DNA of 64,000 nt from Octopus vulgaris (GCA_951406725.2 OX597820.1:33666001-33730000); one strand, 5' to 3'. Shown: positions 1 through 56,297, counted from the first letter of the stretch. Made by a program: numbers and translations. The notes: generated from the sequence alone by a model not told the origin.

Positions 1-149
1 TCTTTCTTCCTTCTCTTATGTTTCCGACGAAGAGCTCCGCTCGAAACGTCATACCTTCCTTCTTCCATTTTCCTGAGCGCCTAATAATAATAATACTGTA
101 ATTGTTCCACGTGTTGTTGTTTTTTCTGTTTTCCCGTTTGGATTAACCT
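1..149 (+). mobile_element. 3' terminal repeat (pLTR) fragment of a Penelope-like element carrying a minimal hammerhead motif, ending at (TA)n
   Basis: CCGACGA(24-30)-A-GAGC-TCC-GCTC-GAAAC-GTC, followed by about 100 nt of T-rich tail and then (TA)n at 150-195. A diverged inverted copy follows the tract. Confidence 0.65.
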
Positions 150-195
150 TATATATATATATATATATATATATATATATATATATATATATATA

Positions 196-470
196 GGTAA
201 TCCAGACATGAACAAAGAGAAAACACAACAACGCAAGGACGTGGAACAAGTATTGTGTTATTGGACGCTCAGGAAAGGAAAGAAAGAAGGAAGATTTAAT
301 GTTTTGAGCAGAGCTCTTTGTTAGAAACATAGAAAAGGAAAAGGTCCAAGGATGGGAAGACGGAGAAAGAATATCGTCAACGATACACACGCGGTCACAT
401 ATTGAAATGACCGGAAGGGAATGGGTGAAGAAAAAGTTCTTTCAAAGACATGAGAGTGCAAGAGAAGGAG
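196..470 (-). mobile_element. Decayed inverted copy of the same pLTR family
   Basis: The reverse complement of 196-340 aligns with 1-149. The HHR core is decayed to CTAACAA...GCTC AAAAC ATT, largely by CpG-type transitions. Confidence 0.6.
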
Positions 471-918
471 GTATGTGTGTATATGTGTGGGTATATGCGT
501 GCGCGCAGCTGTATGTGTGTGTGTGTGTGGTTGTGGCTGTTTATCTATGTGTGTGGTTGGGCGTAGTATCGTTTAAGGCCATAGGAAGAATTTATAGTAA
601 GAATTTTGGTAGGAGTGGCTGCCTGTTGTGTGTCTTCCTACACATGTGCGTAGGAGAATGGTCAGTAGAAGGTACTGGTAGCTTGAAGTATGTGTGTGTA
701 TGTGCGTGTATGTGTATGCAGTGTATGTGTGTTTTGTTTGTAGTGTGTGTGTATGTATGCATGTATGTGTTCGTGTGTATATGTGTGTATCCGAAGGGAT
801 TGTGTGTGGGGGGGGAGTAACTGTACTTTATTCTGTGTATGTGTGCGTGTGTGCTTGTATATGTGTGTACATGTATGTATAATTGTGTACGTGTATATAT
901 GAGTGTGTGCTGTATGTA

Positions 919-3474
919 CAGGCATAATTTGGCTTAAGTCGTTTCCATTTGAGTCATTCTCGATTATACGTCGGTTTTCAAAAATAACATGGAAAAATAT
1001 AAATCAAGTCAAGTCATTTTACACATCTTTATGTCTGTCCGCCTCAAATATTGGAATCGTAAAATCACTGGAAAACCGTTAGAAGTACATAAAATCATAT
1101 TACTGTACAATAAATAAGAATAACAGCATATAAAAATCAAATTAAAATAAGTAAAGTAAATGTTAAGATACACACCATACAGCAGTGTAGCTTAGTGAAC
1201 GAAATCATGAAATCAGCTGTGTTGTCTTATTTATCGGTCTTTCGGAGCTCATATTGCACTATAGTTCCAATATCTACCGTTAGGCGTTGTTGTCACTCGC
1301 GATTCCCGCGATTGTTTTGAATTCAGATTCGTTTACGTCTGTTTATCGGCTATTTTCTCATTTTCATTCATTGTGACTTAATTTTTCACCCCCATGGCTC
1401 CTAAGAAAATACGTAGTGAAAGTTCTAAGCGTCATGCTATAATGCTGGAACATAAACTGATAAAACGCCATGAAAAAGGTGAAAAAGTGGTTGCAATTGC
1501 ATGATTTGGGGGATGAGTCGAACAACTGTATCGACGATTGTACATAACAAGAATATTTTAGCACACATCAAATCTGAAGCCTCGGGGATTAAGAACACTG
1601 TCATCAGTAAGAAAAGGGGCAAAATCTTTGAAGAAATTAAACGTCTTCTTTCTCTTTGGGTTGTTAGGTTGAATCGTCAGTGTGCTACTATTTGTCAGAA
1701 AATCACTCAAGAGAAAGTGTTATCTGTTTGAGGACCTAAAAAAATATCCAGAGGAGAAAGGTGTAGAGTTCAAGGCAATCCAAGGATGATTCCTGAGATT
1801 TAAGAGCGATGAAGTCATCACTATATTAAGAAGCAAGGTGAAAGTACATCAGATGATGAACAAGCAGCAGCGGAATTTCCTAATGCATTAAAGAAAATCA
1901 TCGAAGAAACCGGGTTTCTTCCCGAACAGGTTTTTAATGTAGACGAAACTGGATTGTATGGAAAAAATTGCCAGACCGTTCGTTCATTTCCAAAGAGGAG
2001 AAAACTATTCCAGGCTACAAGGTCTCAAAAGAACGAGTGAACATTATGTTGGGAGGTGATTGTTCAAGAGATTTAAAGATAAAGCAATTGCTTGTGTATC
2101 ATGTACACAACCCCCGGCCCTGAAGAACATACTCCCCTGTTATATTGATGGCTAATTCAAAAGCGTGGGTTACTGTTGTTGTTTTTGAAAATTGGTTCTT
2201 CAATCATTTTATTTCAGCAGTAGAAAGGTACTGTTAGGAGAAGGTGATTCCATTTAATTCTTAGATAATGTTCCTGATCACCCGCAAAACATCGTAGATT
2301 TTGACTCCAACGTTACCGTCGTATGCCCCACCCCCCTAACACCACGTCTCTTCTGCTGCCAATGGATCAGGGAATAATTGCTATCTTCAAGCATTACTAT
2401 ATGAAGCGTACGCTGCGGCAAGCAATAGCTACAACTGATCTTGAGGAGTCCATCACACTTAGTGACTTTTGGAAGAGAAACGATATCTACAAGGCTGTAC
2501 AGAACATAGCAGCGGCATAGAATGATGTGCAGAGCACGGCTATGAACAGTGTATGGAAGAAGATATGCCCTCAATTCGTGAATGACTTTAAGGGGTTTGA
2601 TAATGTTGCAATCACAAAACGTTGGTGACTATGAGCAAAGAACTGGAAATGGATTTGGAGGAGGAGAATTTCACAGATTTATTTGAAAAAGACATGTATC
2701 CTCTGACGAACGAGGATTTTATAGAGCTTCACGAGCAGCAAAATAAAGAAGAGGAAATGGAACCTGAGCCACGTCATTTTACCATTAAGAAAATTCAGTA
2801 AGTATTTGCCTACATCAAAAAAGATCTTTCTATGGTTGAGGATATGGATCCAAATGCTCAACGCTTTTCCAAGATTTTGGGGGCTTTTCACGAAGCTCTT
2901 GTTCCTTATAATGTAATCATTGTGGAAAAGAAGACAGTTCAAGGAACACTGAACCGGTTTTTTAAGCGCATCGAACAAGAACAGCCAGAGTCAGCTGTTG
3001 ATGTTGACGAGCTACAACCATCTACATCCTCGACTTAAACCACCAAATTGTATGTACGTATTGGTAAATTTCAAATAATTTAGTTTCTTTACTATTGCAA
3101 AATAATAATACTTACTGAATTTGTTTTTTAAGCTTAAAATGGTTTTATTTTATCATGTCGTACTGCAAACCGCGTTCATAAATAAAGCGTCCGCAATGTA
3201 CGGTAAACACCGCCAAACTATGTTAATAATTTTAGATTACATTTTTTAATTGCATTGTATTAAAAAATAAAAATTATTTGTTTGTAAGCTTAAAATAGGT
3301 TTTTATTAACCATGAATTATTGAAAATGCATTCATAAATAAAGTACAGAACTGGGAATGGTTATTATCGGTTTAGCCTAAAGTCAAGTAAATTCAGCCTA
3401 GTCTAGCCTAGAGACAAGTTAATTCTAGTTGTGTCTCCTGGAACCAATTAACGATGTAGGGTGAGGTATGCCTG
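919..3474 (+). mobile_element. Tigger/pogo-type DNA transposon, full length but decayed
   Basis: TA|CAGGCATA...TATGCCTG|TA termini enclose a broken transposase ORF. Confidence 0.88.
1394..3038 (+). pseudogene. Tigger/pogo (CENP-B HTH + DDE) transposase pseudogene
   Basis: MAPKK start, GMSRTTVSTIVHNK (HTH), EQVFNVDETGL, LDNVPDHP and PPNTTSLLLPMDQGIIAIFKHYY motifs. Many frameshifts and stops. Confidence 0.9.
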
Positions 3475-3603
3475 TATACACACACACACAGCTAAATCCG
3501 ATTGAAAAGGTACTGAACTGACGGCCATTGTGGACTGTAAGCTTTTACTGTACAGCATATACTTGTGTCTGTCTATGTATTTTCTTTCTTTTCTTTCTTT
3601 CTT

Positions 3604-54304: not shown

Positions 54305-54527
54305 CTAAGTTTCTTATTTCTTTATTGCCTGCAAAGGGCTAAACATAGAGGGGACAAACAAGGATAGACAAACGGATTAAGTCGATTACATCGACCCCAG
54401 TGCGTAACTGGTACTTAATTTATCGACCCCGAAAGGATGAAAGGTAAAGTCGACCTCGGCGTAATTCGAACTCAGAACGTAGCGGCGGATGAAATACAGC
54501 TAACGTTTCTGCCAGCTCGCCGCCTTG
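54305..54527 (-). mobile_element. tRNA-derived SINE family A
   Basis: Same central domain and tRNA-like head as other family A copies. Confidence 0.87.
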
Positions 54528-55218
54528 CTCTAAGTTTCTGTGTGTCAGAGGCTCTCGGACAATGTGTGTGTGTGGTGTGTGAAACTAATTTGCGCGCGTA
54601 TGCTCCGTGTATGTGTACATGTGCATATATGTGTATGGACGTGTATGTAGGAGGGTGTTAAGTGCACTATGCTGGATAGAGGTGTCTATCCAGCATAGTG
54701 ATAGTTGTTGCGTGATAGTTGTTGAGAAGTGCGGGTGCGGGATTATATATTTACTACTGTAAATGTGAAGATGGATTTGGAAGTGTTGCATCTTTTAAAG
54801 TTGTAATTATTGATGATTCTAAAATAATGCTATATCGAAACATGTATATGTACGTAGAAAATCTTTTCTTGATAATTTTGGGTTCTTTTGTTGGTTGAGA
54901 AGCTTCCTTTTATAATCTTATAGTTATGTTTTTTCATCTTTTAATTTGTATTACTTTTCCAATAAAACGAAACAAGCATTTTTTTTTTTCATTTTTCTTT
55001 ACCATTTTCTTTTATTGACTTTTTTGATTTTATGAGACTTTATATACATATATATTGATGAAGTTCCTATCAATATATTTGGTTAAACCCAGTTGGCATC
55101 AGGATTGTTTATAACAATCCCTTACGTGGATATTGTTTCCTCAAATTCTGAATACTCACACACACACACACACACACAAATATATATATATATGTATGTA
55201 TGTATGTATGTATGTATG

Positions 55219-55331
55219 TATTAGAAGAAATAAGGTACTCAGAAATATGGATGGTTTTATATTTACAGATATTTATTAATATCTGTTATATAAAACCATC
55301 TAGATTTCTGAGCACCTTATTTCTTCTAATA
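55219..55331. repeat. About 113-bp hairpin (MITE-like)
   Basis: TATTAGAAGAAATAAGGTACTCAGAAAT...ATTTCTGAGCACCTTATTTCTTCTAATA. Confidence 0.85.
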
Positions 55332-56224
55332 TATAATACCTGTACATCATCTCCAAACCTTCATATATATATATATATATATGGGAGTGGAACAGGATGT
55401 CACGAACGATGCAAATAACATGAAATACGTATACAAACGAGTAAACACAGAGAAAGGACCCTTGGTCAGTTGTCGACTGTCTATCTTGTCATTTCGAGTA
55501 TTCAACGATAAATGAGTCTTCAAAGACAGTTGCTCCCATAAGTTCTAAAATAAAATAAAACTTTGGGATTTATGGAGTGTCAAAGTTGGAAACAAAAGAA
55601 TGACAGTGAAGACATACAGGGAAGCCGAACGAAAACAAACATGGAGGATCGTTAGACCAGTACGAGAGGAAAATAGTGAACGCTGGGAGAAACATTTTTC
55701 GAAAAAGTAAAAGATAGAAGACAGAGAAAAAAGACATGTCCACTCGTTTAAACGTCCGTGCAGGAAAAGAAAGATGGTCACGTGAGGAAAAGAAAGATGG
55801 ACGATGGTCACGTTCGAGTAACGAGAGAGAAGGAGGGAGAAAGAGAAAGAGGGGAGAGGAAGATGCAGATAGAAAACGGTGAAGGGGTGGGGGAGAAAAG
55901 GGAATTAGAAAAGGAAGGAAGAAGAAAACAGTATAGAGTAGAGAGTTGCATCAAAAAGGTGAAGATAAACTGACTTGGAAATAGATGCCTCGCGTTCAAT
56001 TAAATAATACATAATAAATAATGTGTGTATATATATATATATATATATATATATATATATATATATATATATATATATATATATATATATAGAGGAATGA
56101 CCACTAAGTGGACATCCATTATGCTAGAGGTAGACCCCATATCGTCTGACTACTAAGAAAAAATTCAGCAAACGCCAGGACGTAAGCGAGCAAGACAAAT
56201 GAAAAGATACAAAATATAAAGATT

Positions 56225-56297
56225 AATCACAATTCTGGTTTCATTGATACCATTTACGTAATACTTACGTAAATGTCCGCAATTCATCAGTGTGATC
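56225..56297 (-). ncRNA. Type-I hammerhead motif with a mutated cleavage triplet
   Basis: GATCACA-CTGATGA-ATTG..CATTTACGTAA-GTA-TTACGTAAATG..CAAT-GAAAC-CAGAAT-TGTGATT. Confidence 0.7.

Follow-up and report, generated by a model that had tools for sequence, protein, structure and literature searches.

The type I hammerhead ribozyme motifs scattered through a 64,000-nt stretch of the Octopus vulgaris genome (GCA_951406725.2, OX597820.1:33666001-33730000; hereafter the window, at its full length) very probably derive from Penelope-like elements (PLEs), many families of which carry a minimal hammerhead near their 3' end and have been left as short 5'-truncated insertions in (TA)n tracts. A further reading is offered tentatively, with slightly less than even confidence: a recently active PLE lineage would depend on an undescribed core, CUGUNGA, in which A6 is replaced by U (A6U) and which would have been selected across subfamilies whose flanks are 10-45% apart, with a sister lineage fixed for the change U4C. 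The assembly totals 2.80 Gb in 227 contigs; the window, on contig C7, is AT-rich with many microsatellites and transposon pieces.

Hammerheads were sought with a scored type I descriptor that allowed the U3-A8 form, one core change and one extra base, with a pass at a score of >=13; it replaced strict descriptors that lacked the U3-A8 form and mismatch tolerance and found 0 and 3 sites. Because the descriptor was loosened with the window already inspected, the independent test was a sample outside it, consisting of 40 stretches of 10 kb at fixed round positions (400 kb) and then 10 further stretches (100 kb). At scores of >=13, the 400-kb sample held 25 matches (seven of them from one tandem array) against 2 in reversed sequence and 1-2 in each of three shuffles, and at >=18 it held 20 against 0; the further 100 kb added seven against 0 reversed. 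Within the window, where sites are named by core position and strand, nine passes compare with a mean of 0.1 and a maximum of 2 in block-wise dinucleotide shuffles (n=20), so that motif density clearly exceeds that of shuffled sequence. As a set, the hammerhead motifs are real.

Single sites vary in quality. All 17 main positions of a preliminary description of the window (9013/9976 taken as two) hold a hammerhead-like core and stems on the strand given there, but only nine pass the descriptor (9056-, 9984+, 31824+, 32095-, 34480-, 35624+, 42128+, 42843- and 53168-). Among the failing sites, 24+, 324-, 35913- and 34172+ belong to families with other copies that pass, 38435- and 45091+ have one weak homologue each (73% and 80%), and 3609+ and 56290- were recognized by fold alone. 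Of the weaker remnants, 49464- resembles by eye a decayed member of a U3-A8 family and 55476- is unproven; one further motif, at 39955-39998 (+), was absent from the earlier list. The sites are also partly dependent, 34480 and 35624 being two arms of one insertion and 9056 and 9984 lying within one 1.6-kb palindrome. A search of the window with Rfam gave no hammerhead at the gathering score, and none occurs among 150 of the 320 rows listed at E<=10; its miRNA rows were rejected as microsatellite artefacts. The tiny or palindromic stem III of the preliminary description is borne out, stem III being exactly self-complementary in seven of nine folded motifs and nearly so, with one central base, in families D and E. 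CUGANGA does not persist throughout as claimed there: five sites show UUGANAA (U3-A8), intact or in decayed form, CCGACGA is the state of the family to which site 20 belongs, and several odd cores taken for remnants are likewise the family state of young lineages.

Three families, accounting for seven window sites, are the 3' pseudo-long-terminal-repeat (pLTR) ends of PLEs that encode a reverse transcriptase (RT), a CX4CxxC linker and, at the C terminus, an endonuclease of GIY-YIG type (EN). Family A (34480- and 35624+) has 1053 candidate copies, mostly 99% identical among the matches listed, and is represented by a whole element (L021) composed of an inverted arm, 5' pLTR, open reading frame (ORF) 1 of 437 aa, ORF2 of 762 aa, 3' untranslated region (UTR), pLTR and tail. 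Its ORF2 contains RT (RVT_1, E 3e-8, better than its cut-off), CX4CxxC and GIY-YIG, the last at 17.6 bits, under the cut-off of 22.6; window positions 34360-35711 correspond to the 3' end of such an element and an inverted arm that lacks the tail, the two meeting at a 40-bp palindrome. The two ORFs overlap in the -1 frame at a U UUU UUA heptamer (L021:3448-3508 and the L022 equivalent); no stable hairpin is predicted after this overlap, and programmed frameshifting would be only a guess. Family B (9056-, 9984+ and 35913-) has 1382 candidates, RT/EN sequences 63-70% identical to those of A, and 3' ends joined to RT/EN at six loci (L076, L078, L079, L126, L127 and L128); its 3' UTR includes a 56-bp tandem minisatellite (36413-36576), a detached copy of which lies at 43465-43588. 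Family C (24+ and the older 324-) has 2328 candidates, with 40 of the 40 listed at 99-100% identity, and a whole element (L145) in which two direct pLTRs, 97% identical, surround a frameshifted RT/GIY-YIG frame.

The hammerhead therefore sits in the pLTR of an RT/GIY-YIG element, in both pLTRs in A and C and at the 3' end in B and the A6U clade. All four ENs carry CX4CxxC and ADKG occurs in L021 and L145. The proteins of A and B are only 26-29% identical to those of C and A6U; close protein homologues carry PF00078 and often PF01541, and their names are uninformative. Hallmarks of EN+ Penelope elements are present as direct pLTRs, an inverted 5'-truncated arm and a tail at one end, the tail being identical with the beginning of the element body, which runs from the 5' pLTR into ORF1. 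Inverted pairs carry a single tail in 11 of 11 pair rows of family A (10 insertions), three of three in F and two of four rows in B. The distance from predicted cut site to 3' junction is fixed by family (A, 57 or ~95 nt; B, 73 or ~100-110 nt; C, 95 nt; A6U, 125 nt), and 5' ends are variable and often abut TA. The 3' UTR measures ~0.8 kb in A and over 2 kb in C. A DNA transposon or miniature inverted-repeat element was considered for the inverted pairs and rejected, given unequal arms, one tail only and a body made of PLE ORF. Families D (3226 candidates, 85-91% identity, dispersed, with inverted pairs and a tail), E (740, 77-87%, older, dispersed, with inverted pairs) and F (2198, 96-98%, young, with inverted pairs and a tail) show type I topology around CUGANGA or UUGANAA/GAAA/NUH, as do A and B; C and A6U do not match it letter for letter. 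The earlier proposal of many distinct PLE families reduced to solo hammerhead ends at very high copy number is upheld; Penelope origin of the hammerheads is demonstrated for three window families and likely for the rest.

Association with (TA)n was scored as (TA)5+ within 260 nt of a motif, a distance picked with the spacings known. Downstream tracts accompany 12 of the 18 mapped window motifs (14% expected, p 4e-7) and upstream tracts one of 18; the preliminary description had named one exception to a tail followed by a tract, 45083, and there are six (3609, 31824, 32095, 42128, 45091 and 53168). Homologue mapping in the 400-kb sample gave 54 rows, reduced to 48 by removal of one TA-repeat artefact and five inner array units, and of these 28 have (TA)5+ downstream (16% expected, p 4e-11) and 21 upstream (p 6e-6), the nearer tract being downstream in 26. 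CA/TG and GA/TC tracts show no excess near these sampled motifs, and for tetranucleotide tracts the excess is weak and confined to the upstream side (9 of 48, p 0.002). By family, TA lies within 260 nt of the 3' side in 35/36 ends counted for A, 17/17 of B, 16/16 of F, 23/24 of C and 26/27 of A6U, some loci overlapping. The association is real and specific to TA, and it reflects short 5'-truncated insertions inside tracts rather than a direction; the earlier statement that motifs point into (TA)n thus holds as an association, not as a general orientation.

Target-primed reverse transcription within (TA)n tracts is the likely origin of these insertions. The tract would be nicked by the GIY-YIG domain and its CX4CxxC linker, and the freed TA end would pair with a short UA run of the element; in family A, UA runs before and after the tail match its two 3' ends. 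Since (TA)n is self-complementary, both broken ends could prime, giving two outward-facing arms that terminate early, and priming from both ends is favoured because either arm may be the longer, which a single fold-back explains poorly. Genomic 3' ends all extend past the cut site, so that the template would have been uncut there or re-ligated into a circle. With a palindromic stem III, cutting in tandem transcripts is predicted to be slow and to depend on dimers, and solo copies are most likely inert.

Several observations weigh against this account. Flanks fetched for D, E and F, reaching ~7 kb in some copies, yielded no ORF; for four of the window sites the loci compared contain no homologue; and in 20 of 48 sampled motifs (TA)5 is absent from the first 260 nt downstream. 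The commonest canonical-core family lies away from TA in five of five sampled copies; it would have a different target or element type, and (TA)n is not used by every family. Copies of this family, with stem II GGCUG/CAGCC, were recorded at L034+6623, L039-4391, L052+2662, L052-2315, L065-4590 and L200+2648. Predicted monomer folds favour stems I and II in some motifs only; in B, young C, F and the unit of the tandem array, the probability that stem I pairs is close to 0. Target-site duplications would be hidden within TA tracts, and cleavage, transcript ends and circle junctions are predictions of this mechanism; assembled-contig sets from four runs cover stretches of family A and A6U, and are silent on ends, strand, level and circles.

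The features of the window are as follows.
1-149 (+): family C Penelope-like 3' end, 5'-truncated ~70 nt ahead of the window, TA on both sides, identified from homologue copies
20-54 (+): family C hammerhead, core CCGACGA (U4C), with an extra A, 4-bp stem II, palindromic ACGU stem III, a U.U mismatch in stem I and a predicted cut after C50
150-195: (TA)23 tract, entered by two insertions from opposite sides
196-340 (-): older decayed family C relative, 76% identity, with a hammerhead remnant at 294-328
3604-3643 (+): hammerhead-like remnant for which no homologue turned up; the first 2.9 kb downstream hold no TA tract
8917-9340 (-): tailed 3' arm of family B, whose hammerhead (9017-9059) has a U3-A8 core and a private G5C change
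9701-10123 (+): mirror family B arm, hammerhead 9981-10023; both arms lie inside the palindrome 8744-10331, centred on (TA)23 at 9498-9543
13911-16560 (+): decayed PLE of the A6U lineage (tblastn E 2e-48), RT and GIY-YIG pieces at 13911-15791, hammerhead deleted near 16450-16470, end at (TC)n(TA)n 16561-16645; 69% identical to L145 and 83% to an A6U copy
31820-31862 (+): hammerhead remnant (U4A), palindromic stem III, no homologue found
32040-32100 (-): family D hammerhead, canonical core, long stem I
34167-34250 (+): hammerhead remnant with a deletion where stem II starts; relatives pass the descriptor
34288-34359: (TA)36 tract, entered from both sides
34360-35507 (-): family A 3' arm, 97% identical to L021, with GIY-YIG C-terminus 35234-35503, simple-repeat 3' UTR, pLTR, hammerhead 34446-34483 (core UUGAAAA, U3-A8) and tail
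35483-35522: perfect 40-bp palindrome, inversion junction
35512-35711 (+): family A inverted arm, 5'-truncated, without tail; hammerhead 35621-35658
35712-35774: (TA)31 tract, entered by families A and B from opposite sides
35775-36589 (-): tailed 3' arm of family B, including a hammerhead at 35874-35916 with the core UUGAUAA (U3-A8)
38352-38436 (-): decayed hammerhead remnant
39955-39998 (+): decayed hammerhead between two TA tracts, one 163 nt downstream, the other 127 nt upstream
42124-42202 (+): hammerhead remnant, one change in GAAA, 10-bp stem II
42655-43288 (-): tailed 3' arm of family F, including a canonical-core hammerhead at 42770-42847
45085-45189 (+): hammerhead remnant, long loop II, no TA tract nearby
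49462-49495 (-): decayed remnant of U3-A8 type (likeness by eye), then (TCTA)n
53123-53174 (-): family E hammerhead, canonical core, 4-bp stem III
55477-55529 (-): doubtful remnant
56226-56296 (-): hammerhead remnant, stem III decayed, TA tract 199 nt downstream

Departures from the canonical core are a property of whole families. U3-A8 is the family state in A and B, and post-insertion decay as the origin of odd cores was ruled out for A, B, C and A6U by family-wide copies. A 29-letter family C pattern with position 4 open has 10,638 exact matches in the genome (reversed control 0), and in the first 100 listed position 4 is C in 77, U in 21 and A in 2, some of the U4 copies perhaps reflecting CpG decay of C. 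By this count the young U4C lineage, to which window site 20 belongs, comprises about 8,000 copies; its youngest subfamily has a U.U mismatch in the 4-bp stem I. The A6U sister clade, with positions 4-7 open, has 17,238 exact matches (control 0), and the first 100 listed have U6 in 96, U4 and G5 in 97 each and canonical A6 in two; among the 90 of these with UGU, position 7 is U in 36, A in 25, C in 18 and G in 11. The A6U lineage, which is young and has spread recently, accordingly numbers about 16,500 copies and is free at position 7. One A6U subfamily was fetched by 401-nt homology instead of by motif, and gave 2629 candidates (95-99% identity in the 40 listed) whose 33 aligned ends read CUGUUGA in 29 cases and U6 in all; 15 of 31 loci of this subfamily have RT/EN upstream. 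U6 is also present in six of six A6U-clade copies in the unbiased samples. No intact A6U or U4C ORF was seen among the copies examined. Across A6U subfamilies the motif is 90-100% identical and the flank 54-92%, a difference overstated by motif-found copies and by foreign flank in short ones. A 12-row tree of family C and A6U ends splits the clades (94/95) and leaves the A6 relative unresolved, for which reason the direction from A6 to U6 is taken from the hammerhead consensus. If slow cutting is all that is needed, this would most likely explain why weak fixed cores (U4C and A6U) are tolerated or even favoured.

The change of A6 to U would be expected to cripple cutting, and A6U may be either a working natural core that the design of hammerhead searches excludes or a former ribozyme that became a signal without cutting as the element went on spreading. 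An alternative that is doubtful on balance, yet the most serious of those considered, is that A6U and U4C motifs do not cut at all and that their fold is retained solely for use by the element protein as a signal in binding or priming. The mismatch in the short stem I of young family C and the predicted collapse of the A6U core into pairs are in keeping with this, as are the weak in vitro activity of A6C and U4C cores given by Perreault et al. (2011; PMC3088659) and the success of Naiad elements without hammerheads noted by Craig et al. (2021; PMC8557442). Subfamilies nevertheless vary only where a hammerhead permits it (all four bases at position 7; A, U or C at position 17 by pattern; loop II), U4 and G5 are kept as given above, and stem I covaries, its G-C pair in family C being C-G in the A6U clade. 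Viroid infectivity, moreover, is still supported by U4C according to the former paper (PMC3088659).

The families for which no ORF was found (D, E, F and the singletons) could instead be non-autonomous, retrozyme-like units that spread in the form of small circular RNAs and borrow PLE proteins, which is judged unlikely. Family D copies are uniformly short, family F has arms of 1.3-2.5 kb without a PLE protein match, and the random sample holds a tandem array of 359-bp units with a hammerhead per unit and TA-rich flanks; a 361-bp spacing recurs in the list of exact U3-A8 matches. Set against these, no window site lies in a tandem array, D and F show the inverted structure with a tail on one arm of ordinary 5'-truncated insertions, and the F arms may end within a UTR, given the lengths of those in A and C. 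The array itself (L028:2090-4770, on contig C1 near 20.002-20.005 Mb) has five direct and two inverted units, each with a canonical hammerhead, and its layout, like that of a Penelope inverted insertion, supports mobilization of retrozymes by PLEs.

Growth of (TA)n tracts after insertion, from TA-rich element ends and with no target preference, is very unlikely. TA tracts are frequent here, at about one per kb, and the 3' junction of family A falls on a short internal TA run; but TA also abuts 5' truncation points at many positions of the element, and unrelated families share tracts from both sides (150-195, 34288-34359 and 35712-35774). Chance matching in AT-rich, repeat-rich DNA has a negligible probability and is refuted for the set, despite the absence of an Rfam match, the eight of 17 main sites that fail the descriptor and the three sites known by fold only (3609+, 56290- and 55476-), by 32 matches against 2 in 500 kb and by the genome counts against reversed controls (31,403/3,782, 13,516/3,961, 10,638/0 and 17,238/0), although two or three single sites may be chance matches.

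The first two of these counts are whole-genome exact patterns without a pairing rule, for the C3-G8 core and for U3-A8, respectively. Double counting affects 16 of the first 100 rows listed for C3-G8, all on the minus strand, giving net values of about 24,000 and 8,700 (U3-A8); with U4C and A6U included, exact motifs amount to about 57,000, which is a floor. Extrapolation from the 48 mapped motifs in 400 kb gives about 3.4 x 10^5 genome-wide (bootstrap 2.2-4.6 x 10^5), and well-formed motifs (score >=18), of which there are 24 in 500 kb or 19 with the array collapsed, give 1.1-1.3 x 10^5. The load including decayed copies is thus estimated at 1-4 x 10^5. Motif density in the window (18 in 64 kb) is roughly double that of the sample (48 in 400 kb), and the preliminary figure of one motif per 4 kb does not carry over to the genome, where there is about one per 8 kb with decayed copies and one per 20-25 kb well formed. 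Copy number is very high, but the large ribozyme reservoir proposed on that basis is an overstatement and is not supported as a store of working ribozymes, since most copies are decayed and solo, with a stem III of 1-3 bp. No report of a hammerhead census in octopus, or of a load of this size, was found in the literature listings searched.

The window also contains long palindromes (8744-10331, 38930-39631, 55167-55389, 56758-56931 and 33153-33464) with arms 71-96% identical. That at 8744-10331 includes non-element DNA and has private changes common to both arms, which suggests that the sequence was duplicated in inverted orientation once the insertion was in place, or that the assembly is responsible. 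Copies of a repeat resembling short interspersed nuclear elements occur at 7467-8557, 17334-17576, 22679-23024, 54315-54526, 58563-59212 and 60548-60764, partly in tandem with a 184-bp period at 8010-8505. Tc1/mariner-type transposase fragments lie at 47145-47717 (-; Pfam HTH_48) and 36787-37332 (-; by eye), RT fragments like those of long interspersed nuclear elements (LINEs) at 51158-51811 (+; zf-RVT), 20387-21031 (+) and 13078-13300 (+), the latter two by eye, and a Pif1 helicase fragment, probably Helitron-derived, at 63014-63502 (-). Outside the window, L124:5262-9666 (+) is apparently a near-intact two-ORF LINE with long endonuclease and RT frames.

Craig et al. (2021; PMC8557442) describe the function of hammerheads in endonuclease-bearing PLEs as unclear and allow that the motifs may simply parasitize the element. 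The canonical, U3-A8, U4C and A6U cores found in young high-copy lineages of one genome make up a natural mutant series for this question, and if the A6U reading is true the need for cutting becomes directly testable, with the canonical A6 relative as an in-genome control. Ribozyme censuses would undercount such motifs because standard descriptors and Rfam miss these cores, and it may be that no genome counted so far has a denser hammerhead load. A load of at least 10^5 would make these elements a main occupant of the genome's TA microsatellites and a source of its long palindromes. No report of fixed A6U or U4C cores in PLEs was found in the literature listings searched; the alignments of Lunse et al. 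2017, which reportedly cover about 150,000 hammerhead variants across genomes, may already hold them, as may file 1 of the supplement to PMC4209133.

The novelty suspected earlier does not extend to the architecture of the system, which matches the descriptions in two papers. Cervera and de la Pena (2014; PMC4209133) describe minimal hammerheads with U3-A8, solo copies, low dimer activity, opposite-strand pairs and up to 9,000 motifs per genome. Those hammerheads share with the octopus motifs type I topology, a tiny palindromic stem III, an extra base after A9 and U3-A8, as well as sequence-diverse families that are mostly solo, with some opposite-strand pairs 100-700 bp apart; they differ in number, with 2,000-9,000 per genome there against ~57,000 exact and an estimated 1-4 x 10^5 here (the methods differ), and fixed A6U and U4C cores were not found in the text available. 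Craig et al. (2021; PMC8557442) report inverted arms, one-sided tails, (TA)n preference and ORF1 frameshifting. Their Neptune-type EN+ elements share RT, a CX2-5CxxC linker, GIY-YIG, DKG, an optional frameshifted ORF1, (TA)n targets, an inverted 5'-truncated copy and a 30-40 bp tail at one end, but the family F tail is ~75 nt and no structure is predicted downstream of the family A ORF overlap. Of the Neptune traits, the linker is present in four of four and ADKG in L021 and L145, while Nematis shares the linker; the likeness to listed Neptune elements was judged by eye. Tail and junction palindromes are also treated in PMC3846280.

PLEs with (TA)n preference are already on record from Octopus as Hydra-1_Obim, from O. 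bimaculoides and with a type I hammerhead, and as Naiad_Obim/Ovul/Omin, in the supplement of PMC8557442. Families A, B, C and A6U differ from these in having DKG/YxDD, a zinc-finger-like linker and another layout: the Hydra combination of DKT, YRDD-type motifs and no zinc-finger-like linker was not found in A, B or C, no Hydra-type peptide motif was seen in the fetched flanks of D, E and F, and the N-terminal GIY-YIG and lack of a canonical hammerhead typical of Naiad were not found in the families here. A study listing 31 recently active PLE families in O. vulgaris (PMC13282606) does not use the word ribozyme in the text available. Non-LTR retrozymes, which reach 120,000 in axolotl (PMC7229834), have in common type I hammerheads, very high copy number and proposed mobilization by Penelope-like elements (PMC7229834; bioRxiv 10.64898/2026.07.22.740005); they differ in that the window sites are solo or inverted ends and not tandem repeats of 150-450 bp, which the array outside the window does fit. 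What appears to be new here is the load and the two young lineages with fixed non-canonical cores, chiefly A6U, for which the evidence lies mostly outside the window. Natural cores of this kind are represented in Perreault et al. (2011; PMC3088659) by U3-A8, U4C (viroid) and A6C (phage Bcep176); there they are rare single cases, whereas here A6U and U4C are the family state of thousands of young copies.

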